Virus record (IMG/VR): IMGVR_UViG_2693429768_000005
From: a virus
Taxonomy: Duplodnaviria; Heunggongvirae; Uroviricota; Caudoviricetes
Length of the DNA: 55,692 nt
Reading direction: 5' to 3' (one strand)
In this document: piece after piece, positions 4,265-46,506 of the stretch
How positions within the stretch are numbered: position 1 is the stretch's first letter
Layout: every line of letters starts with the position of its first letter
The notes under the pieces: model-generated
Database searches by the model: none
What the model was told of the DNA's origin: nothing
The model's input: only the letters and a program-made list of their open reading frames with translations
Program-made: the position numbers and the translations under genes

Positions 4265-4423
4265 CGCAATGACTCCATTATGTTAATTAACGGAATAATT
4301 CTACCATTTTGTGATCTTTGTTGCATTTTCTGCTTACACAAAATGTATTTGTTGATTTATGTCAATGTTGCGTAAATGCGGTTTATGGATACTACAAACA
4401 ACGAAACAACGGAGGGTAAGACA

Positions 4424-4663
4424 ATGAAAGGCTTTAAAAATATAGCTATCGCTGCAATGGTTGCTGGTCTGGTTGGTTGTGCTGATATGCCGAAACGTGA
4501 ATGCACGGCAACTTATCAAACTGGCGGTAATGAGTATGCGGTTGCAGTCTTCGGTGTCGCGGATGTTGGCGGTCATAAAATGGTTAAGGCCGGGTATCCG
4601 TTTAACTTCCAATGGGTAAGCGTTGACAACTTCAATAAAACGGATTGCCCGGAACTAAATTAA
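4424..4663 (+). CDS. small lipoprotein, candidate Cor/Llp-like superinfection-exclusion protein
   Basis: 79 aa from internal ATG after GGAGGG; signal peptide with lipobox LVGC; divergent from adjacent receptor-binding genes. Confidence 0.55.
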   Translation: MKGFKNIAIAAMVAGLVGCADMPKRECTATYQTGGNEYAVAVFGVADVGGHKMVKAGYPFNFQWVSVDNFNKTDCPELN

Positions 4664-11794: not shown

Positions 11795-11892
11795 TTTATC
11801 ACCTTGTCATTTTGTGATCGCCATCACGCTAAATCATGCCAAAACGGTTGATCGCGTTTTTTACAATATGTATATTGTACTCAAAAGGAAGC

Positions 11893-12078
11893 ATGGTTAA
11901 CAAAATGGCGCGGAGGTGTGAAATGGATGATAAGGTGTGGAGGTTGGCGGTGTTCCTTGCGGATGGCAGGAAAATGACTGTGGCCCTGTATAAAGATGAA
12001 GGCGAGGCACTTACCGACGCGCTCTTACTCGCTGAAGACGAACGCGTTTTGGGGTACAGAATCGAACCTGTCAAATGA
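11893..12078 (+). CDS. hypothetical moron protein
   Basis: ORF on opposite strand to tail operon, SD-like AAGGAAG before ATG; part of cassette with own terminator. Confidence 0.35.
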   Translation: MVNKMARRCEMDDKVWRLAVFLADGRKMTVALYKDEGEALTDALLLAEDERVLGYRIEPVK

Positions 12079-12090
12079 GAGGTTAACGAA

Positions 12091-12438
12091 ATGCAAAAAT
12101 ATAGTCTTGATGTGTGGTTAAGTGGTTGCAAGGAGTGTTTCGGATTATTTGATAGCGAAGAGGCAGCTTTGGAAGAAGGAAGGATTCTTGAATGTAGTTT
12201 AGGCCATCCAGTGAAATATGCCGCTAATCCGGTGCAGATAATTGATGAGGTGGAAAACATGAATCCGAAAGATATTAACTTTAACGTCAATGTTGAATTT
12301 GCTGATTCTATGGATCAGTCTTGCCCTGGTGAAATACACGCAAAAGGTTTCCCGGCAGACGATCCGCAAGCAAAACGCGAATACGAAAAAGCTGCGAAAG
12401 ACTTCTGTATCGACAATTTGTCTGCGTTCGATAAATAA
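12091..12438 (+). CDS. hypothetical moron protein (115 aa, Cys-containing, acidic)
   Basis: ORF with GAGAGG SD; no recognisable domain. Confidence 0.4.
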   Translation: MQKYSLDVWLSGCKECFGLFDSEEAALEEGRILECSLGHPVKYAANPVQIIDEVENMNPKDINFNVNVEFADSMDQSCPGEIHAKGFPADDPQAKREYEKAAKDFCIDNLSAFDK

Positions 12439-12447
12439 GGCGACAAC

Positions 12448-12696
12448 ATGGGGCGGCGCAATCACGGTGATTATGTGTACACGTTGAAACAGGCCGCCCG
12501 CCTCGTTGGTTATCATGAACACGAATTTATTGATTTGCTGATTGAGCGCGGGATACTGTACCAGGTATGTTTAACGCTGTACCCTAAAGCGAAATATCTA
12601 CAGGAAAAGTTATTCATCATCATGACGGATGAAAACCAGGTTAATCATTCATTCGTCACGGATAAGGGCGTTAATTATCTGCGTGATAACTTATAG
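12448..12696 (+). CDS. hypothetical moron protein (82 aa, possible HTH)
   Basis: ORF following previous with 9-bp gap; segment LKQAARLVGYHEHEFIDLLIERGIL resembles a DNA-binding helix pair. Confidence 0.4.
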   Translation: MGRRNHGDYVYTLKQAARLVGYHEHEFIDLLIERGILYQVCLTLYPKAKYLQEKLFIIMTDENQVNHSFVTDKGVNYLRDNL

Positions 12697-13890: not shown

Positions 13891-13917
13891 AACTTCACTC
13901 TCATAAGTTACATATTG

Positions 13918-13955
13918 TATACATCTTTACGCGTTTCTACGCGAAAAATGAGAAA
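13918..13955. repeat. 34-bp conserved element, copy 1 (tandem TACGCG repeats)
   Basis: ATACATCTTTACGCGTTTCTACGCGAAAAATGAGAAA; near-identical copy at 26524-26560. Confidence 0.5.
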
Positions 13956-14061
13956 TTCATCACAAGAATTATAACCAGTTTACAAAATGGCTTCACATAA
14001 GGCGTGACAAGATGTATATAGTAAGCAAGAAGAAAAAGCAGTACCGACAAAGGGGGACAAT

Positions 14062-14217
14062 ATGGAACGCTATGTGGTTGTGATGCTGAACAAAGCATTC
14101 GAACAGGTGGAAGTTGCGATTGTGAAGGGCTTTGATGATGCATTCAAATACGGTCAATTCATGATGAATGCGAAGGAAAACGAGTACCGTGATTTCTTCC
14201 TGAAAGTGGTCAACTAA
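14062..14217 (+). CDS. hypothetical moron protein (51 aa)
   Basis: ATG after AAAGGGGGACAAT; opposite strand to tail operon. Confidence 0.35.
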   Translation: MERYVVVMLNKAFEQVEVAIVKGFDDAFKYGQFMMNAKENEYRDFFLKVVN

Positions 14218-14235
14218 TGGATTGTGGGGTGTGTT

Positions 14236-14490
14236 ATGAAATTGGTGGCGATTGGTAAAAACTTGAAAGCACAGAAAAACGCACAGGACCGGATCATCAA
14301 AAAGGGCAAGGCTTTATTAAATGCTTTCCTGAGAAAAGAGGCCACCCCCAAAAAATTACGCGATGGCTACGGTTATAAATTTGATATTAACCCCGACTGG
14401 CGGTTATTCAGCGAAGATTTAAAGGCGTGGTTAATTATCGACCATCTGGAATATAACAGACACTGTGGGGTTAAAGGGGCGCATAAGTAA
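14236..14490 (+). CDS. hypothetical moron protein (84 aa, basic)
   Basis: ATG after GGGGTG; followed by terminator. Confidence 0.4.
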   Translation: MKLVAIGKNLKAQKNAQDRIIKKGKALLNAFLRKEATPKKLRDGYGYKFDINPDWRLFSEDLKAWLIIDHLEYNRHCGVKGAHK

Positions 14491-14598: not shown

Positions 14599-14635
14599 GC
14601 CCCGGCATTGTACCGGGGTTTGGTTTATTTGCGGC
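14599..14635. terminator. bidirectional rho-independent terminator between moron and tape-measure gene
   Basis: CCCCGG-cattgta-CCGGGG hairpin with TTTGGTTTATTT on plus and T-rich tract on minus. Confidence 0.6.
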
Positions 14636-17600
14636 GAGGTTGCAACATTCCTCCCGGTCTGGATGATTCGCGGTGTATCAGGCCCATACAGATCTTTTCC
14701 ATATCCTGCTGTAGTTTTTTGGCGTCCTCATCACTCCATCCATTTTGTGGGTAAACACTAATCGGTGCGTTTATACTAACGTTACCGCCGCCCGCACCAC
14801 CAATGTCGCGATTTGATATTATCCTGCCGTTGTCACCCGGAATCATGTACTGCTCGCCGTTTCGAGATTGGAAGATCTCTGGCTTGCCGTGCTCGCCAAC
14901 CCTATAAAGATTGCCGCCATTAACCGCGCCGCCGTTATAGCGAGCACCCGCCAGGCCAAGCGCTTTTGCCCCAGCTAATCCGGTAGCCATCGCCGCTGAC
15001 CCCGCCGTCGCTGCGCCGCCCATTGTTGCCACGCTTGCCAGGTATGCCGGGGTGGACCATGCAGAACTTAACGCCACCGCCTCGCCCATTGCCTTTGCTG
15101 TTGCGGCGGCACTGGCAGCCTCCCCTATTAATTGCTGCTTGACCCATTCAGCGCCCATCTGAACAAGCGTACCGATCACGGATGACAGAATTGTATTGCC
15201 AATGTTAGCAAGCGCCTGTTGCCAACTCTGAGTGCCGTTAACCAGTCCGACAAGCGCGTTTGTTGCGGAACCACTCATTGCATCAACAGTATCACCTAAC
15301 AATTGGTTGCTCATTGACTGCGCTTTATATCGTTCCCATTCAAGGGAAAGCATTTCCTGTGCGTGCGCTTTTTCTTGCTCCCTCATATATTGCTCGGTAG
15401 CGCCTAAATCGGTAAGCATTTGTTTGCGAACAGCCCATTCGTTTTGCGCCTGCTGGATTGGGTCTACCTGCCCGCGCACTTGTAGCTCTTTGTTTACCAG
15501 ATTATCCCAGCTAGCCTGACGTTTGCGTTGTTCCTCGGTTCCAATTAATTCTTTCCATGCCTTATTGTATTGTTCCGCGCTTATTTTCCCGCTTTTAAGT
15601 GCGGCGTTTAGCGCCTCCTGATCCTCTTTTAATTTCCGTTGTGCTGCAGCTTCTACGTTGTATTTGTCTGCAACATTCTGGCCCCGCTTCTCAAGCTCTT
15701 TGCGCAGGCGTTCAGCCTCTTTTAGACGTTTTTTCTCCTCGCTTTCCCCATGACTGGCCTTTCTTTCAGCTTCGGCGCGTTTCTGCTCGGTGTCGTATGC
15801 TTTGGTCATTGTAGCCATGTATTTTTCATACGCTTCCCCGGTCAGGTTTGCTTTCTCAGCCTCACGCTTAAACCCATCAATCGCCTTTTCCCTGCTGGCT
15901 GTTTTGGAGTCGAGTTTTGCCAGTTCCAGGCGGCGGTTTGCCAGATCCATTAGCTCTTGCTGATCTGCGTTAAGTGCGGCTGAAGCGTGTTGCGTTGCTG
16001 CTGCTGCGCGTTCTGCTTCTGTGGTGATTCTTCCGTATGCGTCTGCCACCAACCCTAATGAAGTGGCAAGGGTCTTCATTAGCGGATCTGTATCCTGCAT
16101 AAGCAAAATATATTTGCGCTGCATTTGATTAAGGCGGTCGAGAATATCCTCACGCTGCGCCTCTTCCCTGGTCAGGCGGGCTGTGATTTCCTGATTAGCT
16201 TTCGATAGGTTGGCGTAAGCGCGTGACCCCTCCTCTGCTTTCTCCAGTGCCTGTTTATTCAGCTCTAGCGCCTGCGTGTCCTGGTCAATCTGTTTGTTGA
16301 GACTGACAACGTCTTCCTCTAACTGACCCATTGATATTTGTAGTTTATCTGCGCCAGCCAGTTTAGCCGCCTTGCTCATTCGCTCCAGTGATTCGGTACT
16401 AACATCCACTGAATCAGCAAGGTTGCGGTTTGCCTCTGCCGTTTGATCTACGTGATCTACATATGCTGTCAACCCGTAAACAGCAAGCATTAACGCGCCA
16501 GGGATACCACCAATCGCGCCCAGAGTAGCGCTAAATGCTGTTTTTAGTAGTCCCGCATTAGTCGCCGCCGCAGTGTGGGCCGCAGCAAGGCGCTGCTCTG
16601 CCGCAGTAAGGGCGTTTGATGCCGCCGTGTTCTGTGCTTTGGCTACAGCCAATTCTTTCAGCGTCTGAACTTCGAATTTTGTTCCGGCGTTTGCCGCAGC
16701 ATAAGCCTGCGCCTCTCTCAGCCTTGCCGCCGCCGCCGCTGCTGATTGCCGTGCTGATACCACCTGAGCGTTAGCTAGCGCCAATTCACTCTGAGCGGCC
16801 TGCCGTGCCGCTGCCGTTTGTGCCCTGGTTGCCTGAGCGTTAGTTAATGCCTCTGCTGTTGCAGCTACGAATTTATTTACCACTCTGCCACCCATCACAG
16901 TGGCAAGGCCAATAAATGCAGTAGCTATTTCGTTAAGGTTTTCTGACAGGGTTACAACTGCCGAATTAAAAGCACCAATCCCGCCCATAATTGACGAATT
17001 GCTGCCGAAAAATTTAGCTGCGTTGTTGCCTGCAACAGTGAAAGCCTCCTGCATAGTTGGGGTGAGTTTAGAAAACTCAGCATCAACCTCCGCTTTCATT
17101 TCCTTAAGGGCTTTAATGATAGCTTCACGGGTGATCTTCCCTTCTGCTGCCATCTTGCGCATTTCTGCCGACGATACGCCCAATGATTTAGCCAAACCCT
17201 CTGACAGCCTGGTAGCGTTTTCTGTAACGGAGTTAAATTCATCGCCATTCAAAACACCTTTGGCGAGGGATTGACCCAACTGACGGATCCCGCCTTCTGC
17301 TTCAGCGGCAGAAGCGCCAGAAATGCGGAATGTTTTGTTAATGGTTTCAACCATATCACCAAGTGCTTGCGTCGATAAACCAGCGTCGCGCGTCGAGCGC
17401 TCTAATTTACCGTAAAGATCTGCCGTAGCATCAAGATCGCTTCGTGAATTTTGCGCGATCTGAAATACACGCTGATTAACGTCTGCCAGTGATTCACCAG
17501 CACGAACGCTATTGATTAGCCTGTTATTCACCTCCTGCCAGGCGTTTGCATACTCAATGATTTTTTTTGCTGCCATTGCAGCACCCAGGGCACTGGCAAT

Positions 17601-17768
17601 CGAGGATAGCTTTGACAGTGACTTACTTGCCTGAGTGGCGGCACTATCCACGCGCTCCAAATCCTTTTCCATTTTGCCAGTTGCGCGATCTACCTCGCGC
17701 TGAACAGTCAGAAGCTGACCCGTTTTTGCATCAACCTCGTAATAAATTGTGCCTAAATTTGTTGACAT
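14625..17768 (-). CDS. H: tail tape measure protein
   Basis: 1047 aa, Ala/Gln-rich coiled-coil-like protein upstream of M-L-K-I-J; typical tape-measure composition. Confidence 0.9.
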   Translation of the reverse strand: MSTNLGTIYYEVDAKTGQLLTVQREVDRATGKMEKDLERVDSAATQASKSLSKLSSIASALGAAMAAKKIIEYANAWQEVNNRLINSVRAGESLADVNQRVFQIAQNSRSDLDATADLYGKLERSTRDAGLSTQALGDMVETINKTFRISGASAAEAEGGIRQLGQSLAKGVLNGDEFNSVTENATRLSEGLAKSLGVSSAEMRKMAAEGKITREAIIKALKEMKAEVDAEFSKLTPTMQEAFTVAGNNAAKFFGSNSSIMGGIGAFNSAVVTLSENLNEIATAFIGLATVMGGRVVNKFVAATAEALTNAQATRAQTAAARQAAQSELALANAQVVSARQSAAAAAARLREAQAYAAANAGTKFEVQTLKELAVAKAQNTAASNALTAAEQRLAAAHTAAATNAGLLKTAFSATLGAIGGIPGALMLAVYGLTAYVDHVDQTAEANRNLADSVDVSTESLERMSKAAKLAGADKLQISMGQLEEDVVSLNKQIDQDTQALELNKQALEKAEEGSRAYANLSKANQEITARLTREEAQREDILDRLNQMQRKYILLMQDTDPLMKTLATSLGLVADAYGRITTEAERAAAATQHASAALNADQQELMDLANRRLELAKLDSKTASREKAIDGFKREAEKANLTGEAYEKYMATMTKAYDTEQKRAEAERKASHGESEEKKRLKEAERLRKELEKRGQNVADKYNVEAAAQRKLKEDQEALNAALKSGKISAEQYNKAWKELIGTEEQRKRQASWDNLVNKELQVRGQVDPIQQAQNEWAVRKQMLTDLGATEQYMREQEKAHAQEMLSLEWERYKAQSMSNQLLGDTVDAMSGSATNALVGLVNGTQSWQQALANIGNTILSSVIGTLVQMGAEWVKQQLIGEAASAAATAKAMGEAVALSSAWSTPAYLASVATMGGAATAGSAAMATGLAGAKALGLAGARYNGGAVNGGNLYRVGEHGKPEIFQSRNGEQYMIPGDNGRIISNRDIGGAGGGNVSINAPISVYPQNGWSDEDAKKLQQDMEKICMGLIHRESSRPGGMLQPRRK

Positions 17769-17925
17769 GATTTAACCTCATACAAAATGTGATCTATGCC
17801 TCTATTTTATACAAAATGGATTTACCTCAGTGAACACATTTTGTATAAAGAAGCCAAAGGAAAGGGATAGAGCGAAGGGACTTAAAAGGCCGGATTGACC
17901 GGAGGAAGCAAAAGAGGATAAGAAA

Positions 17926-18015
17926 ATGAAAAACGTAAACTACCACCCCAACGAACATGAGCGCTATGCTGACTTTATCGAGCAAATGTTAAAAGCGCTG
18001 AAAAACAAAAACTAA
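17926..18015 (+). CDS. hypothetical mini-protein (29 aa)
   Basis: ATG after AAAGAGGATAAG; first ORF of plus-strand cassette. Confidence 0.3.
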   Translation: MKNVNYHPNEHERYADFIEQMLKALKNKN

Positions 18016-18027
18016 GCGGGGTGAAAT

Positions 18028-18387
18028 ATGAAAAGTCTGGCAAAAATCTTAATCGTGGCGGTACTTGCAGGAGTTGCGCTTAATGCTAATGCTGAGCACT
18101 CTCCGTCCGCAAAATACATACTTCGTGAATGTGCGCATAATGCTCAGTTGTACGATATAAAGCATGGTGACGGTAATGGTGATCTGGAAATGCCATTTAA
18201 CGTTGGCTGTATTCATTACGCAATGAAGCCAGTATTAGAAAAAACCGCTGAATGGAAAGATCTTAATAGCAAGTACAATGAATTAAAAGAGGCGGCAAAA
18301 AACAATAAAGCGTCACTAAATGCGTTTAAGGATGGCGAGTCTTATGGTGTAAACGTGGCCCACAGAGTTGATGCGTATTTCAACTAA
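18028..18387 (+). CDS. secreted (signal-peptide) protein of unknown function
   Basis: 119 aa; N-terminal MKSLAKILIVAVLAGVALNANA-EH signal peptide; own terminator downstream. Confidence 0.5.
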   Translation: MKSLAKILIVAVLAGVALNANAEHSPSAKYILRECAHNAQLYDIKHGDGNGDLEMPFNVGCIHYAMKPVLEKTAEWKDLNSKYNELKEAAKNNKASLNAFKDGESYGVNVAHRVDAYFN

Positions 18388-18394
18388 CACAGAA

Positions 18395-18425
18395 TTTTAG
18401 AGGCCCGGCTAATCCCGGGCTTTTT
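18395..18425 (+). terminator. rho-independent terminator
   Basis: GCCCGG-ctaat-CCCGGGC hairpin followed by TTTTTCTT. Confidence 0.55.
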
Positions 18426-19098
18426 CTTGCTCGCTATTTTCCATTCTTTTTAGTATCTCCATAGCCTCCCTCATTCCATCGTCATAAGCCTTTTTATCCA
18501 GTAATACATCTGGTCGTTTTTGTTTGTTTCTTGCTTCTGGTGGCGTTTTAGCACGCACAGCGGCCCTATATCCGGTCATTGTCATATTCCACGCTTCTGA
18601 TTCTGATAACCCCAGGTGAGCAACGGCAGAATAAACAAACTCCAGTATGTCGAACGTTGGTTTGTATTCACCTTCCTGTCTATCGCTTGCGACCTCTTCA
18701 GGGCCATCACCAATTAAGCCGTGGTACATGCAGTGTTGCGCCAGCGTAATAACATCATCAACCGGCATTATTCCCGGTTTTAATCTCAATTTACCCGAAG
18801 GAGTGAACCAGCATTCGCCTAACAACGGGCCTGTTTCGTCGTCTGAGCAACATTTCAGGATGTGTATAGACGTTTGCACTATCTCACCATAACACCGCGC
18901 CATAATGCGATTGCGGAGGTCTGGATCTGTAGGTAATCGTGAAGGGTATTCGCTACCGTGGATGGTTGCGAAACATTCCACAAGCTCCCTGTCATTGCCG
19001 ATTTTAGCCATCGCAGCAAAGCAAGGATTAAACTTATAGCGCTTACCGTTCACCACAGCCGCAAATTGTCCTGTACGAACATGGATCATAGTATTCAC
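18409..19098 (-). CDS. putative tail assembly chaperone (G/GT position)
   Basis: 229-aa acidic ORF between major tail protein and tape measure; assignment by position only. Confidence 0.4.
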   Translation of the reverse strand: MNTMIHVRTGQFAAVVNGKRYKFNPCFAAMAKIGNDRELVECFATIHGSEYPSRLPTDPDLRNRIMARCYGEIVQTSIHILKCCSDDETGPLLGECWFTPSGKLRLKPGIMPVDDVITLAQHCMYHGLIGDGPEEVASDRQEGEYKPTFDILEFVYSAVAHLGLSESEAWNMTMTGYRAAVRAKTPPEARNKQKRPDVLLDKKAYDDGMREAMEILKRMENSEQEKARD

Positions 19099-19133: not shown

Positions 19134-19610
19134 TTATGCGGCAACCGGATCGGTTACAGTTACCTGGCCCGCGCTTTCGCACTCAATGGACCAGGTTGTC
19201 ACATCATCGTGCGGCGCCTCTTCTTCGAAAGATGTGCAAAGGAATGGACCCTCAGTCACATCGGTGGGAGTGACGATTTTTAGCCACACGTATGGCTGAT
19301 TTCCGGTAGCAGTGCCCGGTGACATTACATGACGCTTTAGTTCTTTCTGGTTGTGTAGAGCATCACTACGTGATACGCCGTCGCCGGAGAAAGAAACAGA
19401 TTTGTAAGTGACCAGGGATTCTTTGGTATAGTCGGCGGATTTATCAGCGGTGGCGTCTGCGGTTTCCCATTCTACGGAAAGTGTTTTACCGCGCATCATG
19501 CCTAACGCCTTGTACGCTCCAGTTTCCGGTTTGGCATTAGGGCAAGCGATAGCAAAGAATACAGCAACGTCACGGCCTGTAAATGAGCCATTTTCGCAAG
19601 TCTGAGACAT
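19134..19610 (-). CDS. putative major tail protein
   Basis: 158 aa; position corresponding to lambda V; assignment mainly by synteny. Confidence 0.5.
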   Translation of the reverse strand: MSQTCENGSFTGRDVAVFFAIACPNAKPETGAYKALGMMRGKTLSVEWETADATADKSADYTKESLVTYKSVSFSGDGVSRSDALHNQKELKRHVMSPGTATGNQPYVWLKIVTPTDVTEGPFLCTSFEEEAPHDDVTTWSIECESAGQVTVTDPVAA

Positions 19611-24261: not shown

Positions 24262-25148
24262 TCTTCGCCATATTTAGCGTGCGCAACCTTATAGTTTTCT
24301 TGCGCCCGTTCTAATATTCGTTTGTTTAATATATTACCGTCTTCGTCAACTAATACGGTAATAGTGCTGCATTTGCAGTTAATTGAATTAGGGGATCTAC
24401 TCCACCATTCGCGCTGCTCTTCTATGGTGTATGTTTTCCCGTGTCGCTGTGCGTGTGATAGCCTGGTAGTCGGTGACAATGCCGAAATGTGCATTTGCAT
24501 AGTGCGCAAGTTAAGCTCATCCGATGCGGCTTCTGCCTCATCCATACGCGCTGTGCGTAACGCTGTGCATATTTCAGTACGGGCAATACGTTTGCACCTG
24601 TATAGCGGTAATTGCGTTTCCTGCTGCAATGTGCGCGCTATTTCTAGTGGGTTTAGGCCACGGGCCATGCCTTCGGTTAATCGGCGGGCCATATCCTTCT
24701 TGATCTGTGCGGTAAGCCCGCGCATCTCTTCAAATACACGGGTACGAACCAGGGCAAGGCGTGTGCGATATGTCTGACTGGTTAATACCGCAGACACTTC
24801 AGGGTAAGCCCTGGAATATGTGACTGACTGGTTAGCGAGGTTGGCATATTCCTGAGAAGTGCCGCGCTGATATGCCACCTTCACGTATTCCTGCCAGAAC
24901 CAGAAGTTTTCCGGGTCTGTTAACTCGAATATTTCATCAATCATGTCGCTGGCGTCTTCCAGCAAATCATGTAATTCGTCGATGTAGATCTGGAAGGTGT
25001 ATTTTTTATTAACAGCCAGGGTATATTGTATTCTGTCCAGTATGGCGATATATGGATCGGCTACTTTCTTCAGGCAGGCTTTAAAACGCTTGATAGCACC
25101 AGACCTTAACTTCCCTGTCATGGTCGGGTCTTCGGTGTTAGATGGCAT
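24252..25148 (-). CDS. head morphogenesis protein (Mu F-like)
   Basis: start set at ATG overlapping portal stop; family recalled from memory. Confidence 0.6.
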   Translation of the reverse strand: MPSNTEDPTMTGKLRSGAIKRFKACLKKVADPYIAILDRIQYTLAVNKKYTFQIYIDELHDLLEDASDMIDEIFELTDPENFWFWQEYVKVAYQRGTSQEYANLANQSVTYSRAYPEVSAVLTSQTYRTRLALVRTRVFEEMRGLTAQIKKDMARRLTEGMARGLNPLEIARTLQQETQLPLYRCKRIARTEICTALRTARMDEAEAASDELNLRTMQMHISALSPTTRLSHAQRHGKTYTIEEQREWWSRSPNSINCKCSTITVLVDEDGNILNKRILERAQENYKVAHAKYGEDWE

Positions 25149-26508
25149 TATCGCGGCTGGAGGTATTCGCCTGATTATCTTCTTCACCCTCATCATCGTC
25201 CTCCTCTTCCGTTTCTACTTCACTGGCTGGGCCATCGTATCCGGCAGCCTCGCGGATCTCGTCACCGCTAAATATTTCTTCACCAGTAGCCAGACAAGCC
25301 TGATTGATTTGTGCCATTTTGTCTGCGGCTTCCAGTAGCTCTGCTTTGGTCATGGCGTTAAGGTCGTCCCATAGCACTGATACATCTACTGGCATACTGA
25401 TAAGGCGTAGATCTGCCATCTTGCGGAACAGATCTTCAATCTCGCCACCGATTTCCTCCCTGCGGGTCATGCAGCGGCTGTTGAAGTAACGCAGGTCTTC
25501 GGTTGATGCACGCTCTCCCTGTTGGTTCCCAACCAGGATGCGGGTTGGAATATCAACACCAGCGGCGGCGGTTTGCAGGTTTACATCATAGGTTGATGAC
25601 GGGTCAGACACGGCAGTAACCAGCGGGCTTACTGTCGCACCCTGTAACGCCATCATTACGTCATTACCCTTATTCATTTCAGCCGTAGCCTCATTGAATC
25701 TTTCGCGTAACTCTGTAACGTCGCAATCGTATGTTGCAGCCAGGGAACGGAAGTCAATCTCTTTATCGAACGAAATAGCAAGCTGACGCGCTGCGTTTTT
25801 CAGGAATGATTCACCACTACCGCCTTCCACTTTTTCCAGTGATACGAATGCGTTGTAGGAAGGTTCAAGGAAAGCGATGACATCATCAGAATAGTCGCCA
25901 AAGATGAATATGCGGTCAGGGTGGATCTTTCTGGCAATGGTCTTACTGTTAATGCGTTCTTTGTATTCCCACCATGTCGGCAGGCCATAATTTTCACTGT
26001 CCGGGTCTTCTTCGAACTCCTTCGGTGTAAGAGCGCCAGCCCACACAGGGGTAAATTTGGCAATACCTACGCCTTTTGTCACTGGCTGATCCCACGGCTG
26101 GTTATCTCTGACATGAATCAACAGACCAGCATAACGACCAATGAGGCGGCGGCGATCACATTCAGCAACAGTGCGCCAAAATCTGTTGTTAAATTTCTTC
26201 TTGATTTCTCTTTCCCACGGTGTTTCCTTTTTCGCTTTCTCGTCTTCAGTTCCCTCAATCATCTTTGGCTTGGTGCGCCAGCAAGTCGTAACAATCTTTT
26301 CTACAGCACCGTGAGCGATGCCGCCGCGTCTGTACAGTTTGTATAGATCGTGGTACGTGATCTCTTCTTTGAATCCGTATTCACTCCACGCAGCATCACG
26401 TTTGGCATCTATCCCCATAGTGAATGGGTTGGCTGCGGCATAGCGGGCGTAGGCCGCCTGGCGTTGTGACAAGGCAGCATTAACCGCCAATTCTAAATTG
26501 GATGGCAT
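25138..26508 (-). CDS. portal protein
   Basis: about 456 aa, acidic C-terminus; follows terL; start set at ATG after AGGAG. Confidence 0.7.
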   Translation of the reverse strand: MPSNLELAVNAALSQRQAAYARYAAANPFTMGIDAKRDAAWSEYGFKEEITYHDLYKLYRRGGIAHGAVEKIVTTCWRTKPKMIEGTEDEKAKKETPWEREIKKKFNNRFWRTVAECDRRRLIGRYAGLLIHVRDNQPWDQPVTKGVGIAKFTPVWAGALTPKEFEEDPDSENYGLPTWWEYKERINSKTIARKIHPDRIFIFGDYSDDVIAFLEPSYNAFVSLEKVEGGSGESFLKNAARQLAISFDKEIDFRSLAATYDCDVTELRERFNEATAEMNKGNDVMMALQGATVSPLVTAVSDPSSTYDVNLQTAAAGVDIPTRILVGNQQGERASTEDLRYFNSRCMTRREEIGGEIEDLFRKMADLRLISMPVDVSVLWDDLNAMTKAELLEAADKMAQINQACLATGEEIFSGDEIREAAGYDGPASEVETEEEDDDEGEEDNQANTSSRDNAI

Positions 26509-26523
26509 AATGTTTACTCCTGA

Positions 26524-26560
26524 ATACATGTTTACGCGTTGCTACGCGAAAAATAGAAAA
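26524..26560. repeat. 34-bp conserved element, copy 2 (tandem TACGCG repeats)
   Basis: ATACATGTTTACGCGTTGCTACGCGAAAAATAGAAAA between terL and portal. Confidence 0.5.
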
Positions 26561-38390: not shown

Positions 38391-38566
38391 AATGCTCTCT
38401 CCTTTTAAGGTGATTTCTACGCATTTCAGCGCTGCCGGATTTTTAAAGAGCATTTTGTTTGCTTGAAGTATACAAAATGGATACGCCATAACAAGGTGAA
38501 AAGCGCCATTATGTGATCTATATCACGTAATGACGCCATTATGTAAACTTCAGTCCGGCAAAACGC

Positions 38567-41258: not shown

Positions 41259-41358
41259 CTTGTTTTTCCTCCGCGCCGTAAACCTTTTGATTTCAGTTCA
41301 CAAAACGGATTTACGATCACAACACAAAATGTATTTCTATGTGATCGCCATCACTATG

Positions 41359-46201: not shown

Positions 46202-46506
46202 GTCGCTACCCTATAACCTCAAAAAGTTTGATGCAAGTCACAAAACGTGTATTTTAAGCCTTGATCTTAAAATTCCATTTTGTAAACTTGCAGACAAGGT
46301 AAGGCCATACTTGCAAAGACGCAAGGAAAAAGATAACGGAAGGCACAAAAAGGCACATACCTTAAGCTCTTTAAAAATCCGGTGTCGCTGCGAAGCGAAA
46401 AACAAATATCACGCAACGGCGGGATCTGTTGAGCGGTCAGTCACTGCTATCTAATGCTAATGGGATGCCCGCCCGCGCGTTCATTTTAACCATAGGAGAA
46501 AATACA

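Follow-up and report, generated by a model that had tools for sequence, protein, structure and literature searches.

In the 55,692-nucleotide (nt) viral record IMGVR_UViG_2693429768_000005 of IMG/VR (in the following the window, that is the whole stretch of DNA that was analyzed), a plus-strand coding segment of 640 nt is located between two minus-strand genes of the tail module, which encode the tape measure protein (TMP) and a DUF6246 family protein. This raises the question of what kind of element such a unit is, how it can be expressed against the direction of the tail genes and what its product might do. A first-pass annotation had described the stretch 17769-18425 as a moron encoding a signal-peptide protein. 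Our comparison of related prophages indicates that the unit occupies a fixed slot with exchangeable cargo and does not represent a one-off insertion. The best explanation overall, to which we give a little less than an even chance, is that it is a genuine moron in a dedicated cargo slot of mEpimmI phages between the tape measure and DUF6246 genes, which may protect the lysogen.

The window itself is a mEpimmI-type temperate E. coli prophage. The stretch 17769-18425 shares 97% identity with Escherichia phage mEp515 and, over 1 kb, matches one E. coli chromosome at 100%; the remainder of the window shares 78-99% identity with the prophage in that chromosome. Furthermore, the window encodes a helix-turn-helix (HTH)/S24 repressor and a lambda-type Q (PF03589). 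The mEpimmI phages, a group of temperate, non-lambdoid siphoviruses, are Nus-dependent and encode a CI-like repressor, an N-like antiterminator and exclusion lipoproteins, and their frequency in human faecal E. coli has been reported to equal that of the lambdoid phages (PMC11893012). Despite this reported abundance, annotations of the slot and its payloads do not go beyond hypothetical proteins; in the case of the window, the longer product is a 'hypothetical protein' in GenBank/PGAP and the shorter open reading frame (ORF) is not called by PGAP.

Anatomy of the cassette and its cargo slot

The transcribed part of the cassette comprises two ORFs, of 29 and 119 amino acids (aa), between a leader with a ribosome-binding site (RBS) and a terminator:

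17856-17925, plus strand: purine-rich 5' leader with a small hairpin CCGG-ATTGA-CCGG (17890-17902) and RBS GAGGA; slots with unrelated payloads share about 85% DNA identity here
17926-18015, plus strand: 29-aa ORF MKNVNYHPNEHERYADFIEQMLKALKNKN, RBS GAGGA 7 nt before the ATG
18028-18387, plus strand: 119-aa ORF, beginning 12 nt past the stop codon of the 29-aa ORF
18028-18093, plus strand: predicted Sec signal peptide (signal peptidase I, SPase I) MKSLAKILIVAVLAGVALNANA with n-, h- and c-regions and A-x-A motif; predicted cleavage between A22 and E23
18094-18387, plus strand: mature 97-aa payload and stop codon; four-helix model, invariant cysteines
18400-18428, plus strand: intrinsic terminator of the cassette, hairpin GAGGCCCGG/CCGGGCUUU and U-run; RNA fold of -15.7 kcal/mol

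Slots of this kind were gathered in two ways, namely as 11 loci found via the flanking genes and by searching IMG/VR with the palindrome TATACAAAATG-N20-TTTTGTATA, which yielded 51 contigs; the module adjoins the tape measure start in the 11 loci and in 47/51 of the contigs. Altogether 17 payload combinations from about 10 unrelated families were found in the 53 slots that could be delimited. All payloads are encoded on the plus strand, have a length of 35-245 aa and are nearly all exported proteins, lipoproteins or small membrane proteins:

116-129 aa: four-helix family of the window
137-139 aa: family with Sec signal peptide
165 aa: family with Sec signal peptide
203 or 219 aa: VasI/TagO-type lipoprotein associated with type VI secretion systems (T6SS); PF11319, 1.2e-15 for the 219-aa form
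124 aa: weakly BamE-like lipoprotein; sub-threshold Pfam match, 18.9 bits with a cut-off of 23.2
245 aa: lipoprotein
35 aa + 100 aa: membrane protein pair
106, 74 and 60 aa: orphans without signal peptide, lipobox or hydrophobic segment

A lipobox is present in the 219-, 124- and 245-aa payloads, and a search of all slot payloads with the PADLOC models gave 0 matches. The VasI/TagO-type payload is accompanied either by the 124-aa weakly BamE-like lipoprotein or by the 106-aa protein (our loci L008 2304-3348, L009 983-1972, L018 and others); a T6SS accessory-type protein is thus carried as a phage moron.

Around these payloads the sequence is constant. The left arm of about 260 nt retains about 85% DNA identity regardless of the payload and extends over the RBS of the tape measure gene, a TGTGATC element, the palindrome, TATAAA, the purine-rich leader and the 29-aa ORF, and a shorter version without this ORF exists. 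The right arm starts at the terminator, and at about position 18401 the DNA similarity to slots with other payloads resumes. A single cluster of tape measure N-termini pairs with many different payloads. It is the conservation of both flanks of the unit that points to a fixed slot with exchangeable cargo. In many cases this constancy even extends through the signal peptide, and the sequence MKRLxK...A(F/L/V)NANA precedes unrelated mature domains. A comparison of L003 and L007 revealed 80-100% DNA identity until the signal-peptide codons end and about 40% beyond, which places one recombination boundary at the cleavage site; the mature domains of both loci are unrelated (hhalign probability 0.3%). 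Payloads are swapped by homologous recombination in the arms, so that the slot carries about 10 unrelated families. An exchange boundary inside the signal-peptide codons together with a conserved upstream peptide provides a concrete model of how new cargo is kept expressed and exported on acquisition.

The 29-aa ORF is found in 35/53 slots in 22 distinct DNA versions and exclusively in mEpimmI phages. Its variable sites are distributed over the three codon positions as 9/5/18 and indels are in frame, and it is a real coding sequence that is probably translationally coupled to the payload gene.

The signal peptide of the 119-aa protein was assigned by reading the n-, h- and c-regions in the sequence. 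The n-region MKSLAK contains two Lys and is followed by the 12-residue uncharged h-region ILIVAVLAGVAL and the c-region NANA with Ala at -3 and -1; the mature protein would start with EH after NANA, and the first Cys is residue 35. This signal-peptide motif is kept in all members of the four-helix family. The stem of the terminator is formed by 18400-18408 and 18415-18423 with a U5 run at 18421-18425 (-15.7 kcal/mol, z = -2.15), and the hairpin reaches into the convergent DUF6246 gene at its 3' end. The annotation of mEp515 has the ARNold terminator T13 at the corresponding position, and a strict terminator scan of the window did not list the hairpin 18400-18428. A scan of 17500-18700 with Rfam gave only sub-threshold chance matches. 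Both ORFs are kept as ORFs in relatives. The GC content is 0.39-0.42 over 17650-18549 versus 0.46-0.52 in the flanks, and GC and AT skews change sign.

All elements that had been described in the first-pass annotation were recovered. Both ORFs and the terminator of the hairpin-U type are located on the plus strand at 17926-18015, 18028-18387 and 18400-18428, and the proposed clear Sec signal peptide is in line with the three regions, the Ala residues at -3/-1 and the predicted cleavage between A22 and E23. The moron assignment agrees with the opposite orientation, the lower GC content, the own terminator, a conserved promoter-like region and a payload that differs between near-identical phages. 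The possibility raised at that time that the region is a conserved spacer in related phages does not apply to the coding payload, but the flanking arms are indeed conserved across slots.

The four-helix payload family

The mature 97-aa domain was predicted by AlphaFold2 to form a four-helix bundle with high confidence (predicted local distance difference test, pLDDT, 94.5; predicted template modelling score, pTM, 0.86). Members of the family share 24-98% identity and have eleven invariant positions (C13, A17, Y20, G29, C39, A43, P46, Y61, G81, E82 and G85 of the mature protein). Cys13 and Cys39, which are C35 and C61 of the full-length protein, are therefore invariant across the family; the two cysteines fit an oxidising compartment and together with the signal peptide they argue for the secreted periplasmic protein that had been postulated.

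A word-indexed search of 5.8 billion proteins revealed only 4 close homologues (76-97% identity), all of them from E. coli. An exhaustive search of 1.84 billion representatives with a hidden Markov model (HMM) resulted in 7 hits, which correspond to 5 true family clusters, including four distant ones with 24-34% identity, and 2 spurious WD40 proteins, which were rejected as relatives because they matched through 'SPDGKYI'-like repeats. All family members whose context was read, including those with 24-38% identity, are located in the same slot, and the four-helix payload is a new small family that is known from this slot only. Comparison of the 119-aa and 29-aa products with Pfam, PHROGs, NCBIfam and PADLOC gave phrog_31571 as sole match (E = 0.05, signal peptide only), a Foldseek search of BFVD returned nothing at E <=0.001 and a profile search against PDB sequences returned nothing. 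In the databases searched, no relative of known function was recovered for the payload, either by sequence or by fold. This, together with the four-helix model, is the outcome of the homology and structure search of the mature 97-aa domain that the first-pass annotation had proposed. A remote homology of the 138-aa and the four-helix payloads was rejected on the basis of an hhalign probability of 0.3%, and an assignment to VasI/TagO was rejected as the 119-aa protein matches neither PF11319 nor TIGR03360.

Among the 119-aa alleles the ratio of nonsynonymous to synonymous substitution rates (dN/dS) is 0.12-0.24 at a dS of 0.6-1.3, and the payload gene is therefore functional and under purifying selection with a dN/dS of about 0.15. 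The flank dS of the same allele pairs is mostly 0.07-0.35, with exceptions of about 0.9-1.4 for the tail tube in pairs with L073 and for the TMP N-terminus (TMP_N900) with L072. In comparison with the window, the tape measure N-termini of L068 and L070 are 97-98% identical and their DUF6246 proteins 88-94%, and the payloads share only 38% and 28% identity. The payload alleles are therefore much older than their present flanks and are shuffled by recombination instead of evolving fast in place. One recent pair with a dN/dS of 0.67-1.5 (11-12 nonsynonymous and 2-4 synonymous changes) was treated as noise; the flank behaves alike.

The upstream regulatory module and phage-wide motif sites

The following promoter-like features were identified upstream of the cassette and at two further sites of the window:

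17785-17806, plus strand: CRP-like 22-mer AAATGTGATCTATGCCTCTATT with core 16-mer at 17788-17803; 16/22 CRP consensus matches, tied for the best of the window
17806-17849, strandless: palindrome TTTATACAAAATGG-N-CATTTTGTATAAA (inverted repeat I1) with motif copies 2 (17809-17818) and 3 (inverted, 17837-17846)
17821-17849, plus strand: putative sigma-70 promoter read from the sequence, -35 TTTACC at 17821-17826, 17-nt spacer, -10 TATAAA at 17844-17849
33730-33800, minus strand: module B, perfect CRP core TGTGACTCGTATCACA, 32 nt, CATTTTG-TTATAT
38467-38530, minus strand: module C, TGTGATCTATATCACG, 32 nt, CATTTTG-TATACT

The cassette is preceded by three copies of a motif, ATACAAAATG at 17780 and 17809 and the inverted form CATTTTGTAT at 17837-17846. 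The first copy (17780-17789) overlaps the CRP-like 22-mer, which was compared with the 22-bp pattern AAATGTGATCTAGATCACATTT and whose left half-site AAATGTGATCTA (17785-17796) agrees with the CRP consensus at 12/12 positions. The arms of the palindrome (17806-17825 and 17830-17849, 20 nt, 85% complementary) overlap the putative -35 and -10 elements and are kept in all independently found loci L001-L011, with a spacer that varies. In 37 distinct upstream sequences the blocks TGTGAT, CTATT(T/C)TATACAAAATG and TTTTGTATA are invariant, and zero indels were found between TGTGATC and the -10 hexamer. The latter two blocks were demanded by the search pattern used for IMG/VR, yet they are present in all 11 independently found loci. 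Furthermore, the -10 element and a -35 element of the form TT(T/C)A(C/T)(C/T) (TTnAnn in relatives) are kept across slots. A perfect TTGACA at 17762-17767 was rejected as -35 element as it is not followed by a -10 and is not conserved.

Class I CRP-dependent promoters are exemplified by lac P1 with a site centred at -61.5. In the cassette, the CRP-like 16-mer is located 40 nt upstream of the -10 element, a distance also seen in modules B and C, and its centre is at about -60.5 to -61.5 relative to a transcription start inferred near 17856, and so the site would occupy a class I position (near -61). The three prophage sites would resemble class I promoters in having a TGTGA-N6-TCACA-type site centred about 60-61 bp upstream of the inferred start in combination with a weak -35. 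Unlike in these promoters, only the left half-site is good in the cassette, and an additional conserved palindrome is placed between the site and the -10 element.

The three motif copies and the overlapping CRP-like half-site had already been noticed in the first-pass annotation, but they are not private to the unit. A 13-mer motif with <=2 mismatches occurs 13 times in the window versus 3.2 expected occurrences, a number that was reached in 0/100 shuffles, and the 8-mer ACAAAATG occurs 23 times (4.25 expected, maximum of 12 in 100 simulations). TGTGATC sites with the 8-mer within 60 nt are present at 6 positions of the window (0.05 expected, maximum of 1 in simulations), and such composite sites mark all four opposite-strand islands of the tail module, at 4376-4663, 12091-12696, 14062-14490 and the cassette. 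The motif copies and the CRP-like half-site of the cassette are part of a phage-wide cis-regulatory vocabulary.

Intergenic composite ACAAAATG/TGTGATC(N4)ATCAC sites were located at 4305-4345, 11808-11907, 13911-13990 and 41315-41355, and every gap from which a minus-strand tail gene and an opposite-strand island diverge has a composite site. The sequence TGTGATCGCCATCAC is identical at 11813 and 41340.

The three promoter-like sites of the window share one geometry, which consists of a CRP-like site, 32-33 nt and CATTTTG plus a -10 hexamer. Modules B and C contain near-perfect TGTGA-N6-TCAC(A/G) cores with 10/10 and 9/10 CRP matches, respectively. Downstream of the Q gene, at a distance of about 2.4 kb, module B occupies a gap of 130 nt before a 46-aa ORF and a 99-aa ORF (33222-33521), and has its own palindrome (ACAAAATGG/CCATTTTGT, arms ACAAAATGGCA/TGCCATTTTGT) and a -10-like TTATAT/TATATA. 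It sits in a variable segment that mEp554, mEp044, mEp010 and MagusPhagus have and mEp021, mEp515 and mEp013 lack, and a strict module-B-type pattern matched 2 contigs only in IMG/VR, so the exact form is rare. Module C is located in a large intergenic region about 260 nt upstream of ninG-rusA-Q and would tie the expression of Q to the same CRP-like signal. In the repressor/cro intergenic region (46232-46292) an imperfect palindrome with 27-nt arms and ACAAAA(C/T)G / CCATTTTGT words was observed.

The simplest reader of this vocabulary would be the host CRP; the alternative would be a phage factor, and given the repressor/cro palindrome a phage regulator might recognise the motif as well. With the CRP-like promoter geometry common to the three sites, a nutrient-dependent control of prophage accessory genes becomes directly testable.

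Possible function, rival explanations and gene setting

How could a protein encoded in this way act? We propose that the host RNA polymerase would transcribe the unit alone, antisense to the Q-dependent late operon and probably aided by cyclic AMP (cAMP)-CRP. Such independent transcription antisense to a Q-antiterminated operon leads us to expect that the product is made in the repressed prophage, and this autonomous expression seems rather probable. Translation of the 29-aa ORF would be coupled to that of the payload gene. Sec export of the 119-aa protein, cleavage after Ala22 and formation of a C35-C61 disulfide in the periplasm would follow, which we consider highly probable on the basis of the sequence features. 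In the periplasm the payload may bind a genome-delivery component of an incoming phage (tape measure/tail-tip stage) or a host periplasmic factor needed there. Superinfection exclusion at the periplasmic/genome-delivery stage is thus the function that we prefer, although tentatively, and we favour it because HK97 gene 15 is found at the same position, because the payloads are almost all envelope proteins and because this phage group already excludes other phages via exported Lpp proteins.

HK97 gene 15 is located between the tail chaperone and tape measure genes and is expressed from the prophage, and its product causes a tail-dependent block of genome injection (Juhala 2000, Cumby 2012; reviewed in PMC3594210). 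The cassette resembles this moron in its position in the tail operon, as a self-contained unit with own terminator and putative promoter, in its small envelope-targeted product and in being absent from or different in close relatives. In contrast to the HK97 moron, it is oriented antisense to the tail genes and is equipped with conserved arms, an upstream 29-aa ORF and a shared signal peptide. The lipoproteins Lpp021 and Lpp010 of mEpimmI phages have been shown experimentally to exclude superinfecting phages (PMC11893012). They belong to the same phage group, are encoded inside the structural gene cluster, exist in several sequence types and are, as predicted for the payloads, exported envelope proteins, but the lpp genes are gp81 (mEp021) and gp116 (mEp010) and the slot is found at gp63 and gp97, respectively. 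Furthermore, Lpp proteins contain a lipobox, whereas the payload carries an SPase I site and lacks a Cys at +1. The cassette, its motifs and its product are not mentioned in that study, and its supplement has no entry for mEp021 gp63 or mEp515_83 (PMC11893012). Other prophage-expressed envelope proteins that act as conversion or exclusion factors are encoded by the lambda-type genes bor and lom and by cor of phi80/N15-like phages (PMC3594210). As in the cassette, the envelope-protein gene is located in or beside the late genes; bor, lom and cor, however, belong to other families and locations and are single genes, not one slot with a constant regulatory arm and many payloads.

The accessory and defence hotspots of P2 and P4 combine conserved flanks with highly diverse cargo that is exchanged by recombination and whose alleles are older than the flanks. 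These are also characteristics of the slot, which differs from the hotspots in its very small payloads (35-245 aa), almost exclusively envelope-targeted and without PADLOC match, and in one exchange boundary within the signal-peptide coding sequence. An identification of the payload with gp15/YebO was rejected as it has no Pfam, PHROG or NCBIfam match and the exhaustive HMM search gave slot-resident relatives only, and the published Lpp exclusion lipoproteins were rejected because of the different locus and the missing lipobox (c-region LNANA followed by E). Since the defining features of gp15/YebO, Lpp lipoproteins, VasI/TagO and PAP2 were looked for and found to be missing, we assign the payload to none of them. 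What is new here is the protein family, the recognition that about 10 small envelope payloads alternate in one fixed slot, the constant arm with the 29-aa ORF and often the signal peptide, and the shared CRP-like promoter design. These findings extend the well-known moron concept and do not constitute a new one.

Several observations weigh against a lysogen-protecting moron with a CRP-aided promoter and an exclusion function. The analogy to HK97 is positional only, as the payload is unrelated to gp15, a YebO-like inner-membrane protein, and is predicted to be a soluble periplasmic four-helix protein that is not membrane-inserted. The payload type shows no general tracking of the tape measure N-terminal type, and mEp021 (receptor OmpA) and mEp010 (LamB) both carry the 138-aa payload; since the payload tracks neither tape measure type nor receptor, a tightly matched pair of exclusion factor and target is weakened. 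Positive selection was looked for in the payload alleles and not found, and a dN/dS of about 0.15 lacks an arms-race signature. With regard to expression, the right core of the CRP-like site of the cassette has 2-3/5 matches only, the -35 TTTACC is weak, a strict consensus scan found no promoter for the cassette, and the palindrome could alternatively serve a late minus-strand transcript or bind a phage regulator.

It is possible, although we see only a limited chance for it, that the protein is a host-fitness or lysogenic-conversion factor unrelated to exclusion, either an orphan immunity protein or inhibitor against toxins acting in the periplasm (T6SS effectors, colicins, lysozymes) or a factor in envelope stress or colonisation. 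The first-pass annotation had taken the protein for a candidate lysogenic-conversion factor. A product predicted to be exported and disulfide-bearing is reminiscent of many periplasmic immunity proteins, the slot elsewhere holds the VasI/TagO-type (PF11319, 1.2e-15) and the weakly BamE-like lipoproteins, the hosts are gut E. coli among which such competition is common, and a CRP-like site would link expression to the nutrient state. However, in the databases searched there is no similarity to known immunity, inhibitor or virulence families, a cognate toxin is not encoded nearby, and the family was found only in the phage slot, never beside toxin genes or in chromosomal loci. The motifs might instead serve the tail operon, with the palindrome and GATCACA acting on the minus strand as restart promoter, as RNA processing or stabilising hairpin or as translation context of the tape measure gene, and with the plus-strand genes using another signal. 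This is in line with the position of GATCACA(A/T)3TG before the starts of the tape measure, L-like and tail-fibre genes (14-50 nt upstream), each just downstream of an opposite-strand island, with a palindrome within the late mRNA that could fold, and with the annotation of the equivalent module B repeat of mEp554 as a terminator. We nevertheless regard a role in the tail operon as unlikely: the minus-strand -35 is not kept (TTCACT in the window, CTCGTT in mEp515) while the plus-strand TTnAnn and -10 are, a U-run after the hairpin is absent in both directions, and modules B and C are located in co-directional gene strings, so that a CRP site followed by a -10 and a downstream gene is the sole reading that fits the three modules.

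T5 Llp is an exported protein that is made during infection, and by this precedent the cassette could be a lytic-cycle accessory, switched on during phage growth by a phage regulator via the phage-wide ACAAAATG/TGTGATC sites, whose exported product modifies the envelope to block re-adsorption of progeny or to tune lysis. The motif set at at least six intergenic sites, covering the early region and every strand-switch of the tail module, indeed suggests a common regulator at the phage level, and a palindrome that overlaps the -10 is operator-like. We consider this quite improbable, as the near-consensus TGTGA-N6-TCACA cores suit the host CRP better than a phage factor, a candidate regulator was not identified, and an antisense unit with its own terminator is the usual hallmark of prophage-expressed morons (PMC3594210). 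A non-functional unit, that is a chance ORF or a decaying remnant in a spacer, can be regarded as effectively refuted. An annotation that nowhere exceeds 'hypothetical protein' and the tiny family (7 hits, including the two spurious WD40 proteins, among 1.84 billion representatives) would be in line with it, but a dN/dS of 0.12-0.24 over deep divergence, the eleven invariant residues among members of 24-98% identity, the very confident fold prediction and the conservation of RBS, signal peptide and terminator speak strongly against such a view.

Beyond the lysogen-protecting moron, the slot as a whole might be a platform purpose-built for the exchange of effectors that act in the periplasm and envelope, although we consider this far-reaching proposal doubtful. 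The constant arm with a nutrient-sensing (CRP-type) promoter, the conserved 29-aa regulatory peptide and shared Sec signal peptide would be both expression/export module and recombination anchor, the four-helix family would count among several periplasmic anti-phage or immunity proteins that had escaped recognition, and the same promoter design would join several moron islands and ninG-Q in one cAMP-responsive regulon. If true, expression and export would be available at once to any mature domain recombined behind the arm. The slot would represent a compact source of about 10 new small envelope-acting families, each in a defined expression context, provided that the payloads are exclusion or immunity factors.

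The slot is bordered by the following minus-strand genes, with the tail tube gene next to them:

14625-17768, minus strand: tape measure protein gene, 1047 aa (PF20155 TMP_3, 1.3e-55; phrog_1107, 1.7e-226)
18409-19098, minus strand: DUF6246 gene, 229 aa (PF19759, 4e-54; phrog_791, function unknown; PGAP name 'DUF6246 family protein')
19134-19610: tail tube gene, following the DUF6246 gene

The tape measure gene forms the left border, and the regulatory module directly adjoins its RBS and start codon. Comparison of the window with L002, L003 and L006-L011 revealed two length classes of tape measure proteins, 1045-1051 aa (window, mEp515, L068, L070 and L072-L074) and about 780 aa in most relatives, and the N-termini of the two classes share about 33% identity past the first 41 residues. 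All 118- and 119-aa payload alleles so far are paired with the long class. The DUF6246 gene forms the right border and is the sole gene between tail tube and tape measure, which is the position of lambda G/GT. The 'tail chaperone' label that had been given to it follows from this position only; by family it is DUF6246 (PF19759). The stop codon of DUF6246 is overlapped by the terminator of the moron, which leaves no space for an extension by frameshifting, and DUF6246, if it is a tail assembly chaperone, would be a non-canonical one.

The other opposite-strand islands of the tail module contain different genes. Directly 3' of the tape measure gene, the plus-strand island 14062-14490 encodes a 51-aa ORF and an 88-aa protein with a ParE-like toxin domain (PF24732, 4e-11), and an additional HNH endonuclease is present in this island in mEp515, L068 and L070. 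The plus-strand island 12091-12696 contains a 115-aa ORF and a small KilAC-type antirepressor-like ORF, named after the PGAP annotation of a related prophage, and the plus-strand island 4376-4663 between tail-tip and tail-fibre genes consists of a 95-aa ORF without Pfam match. The homologue of the minus-strand gene 25138-26529 in a related prophage is named 'anti-CBASS protein Acb1 family protein' by PGAP; as the gene of the window matches Phage_portal_3 (1.2e-19) and sits at the portal position, this name looks like an over-annotation.

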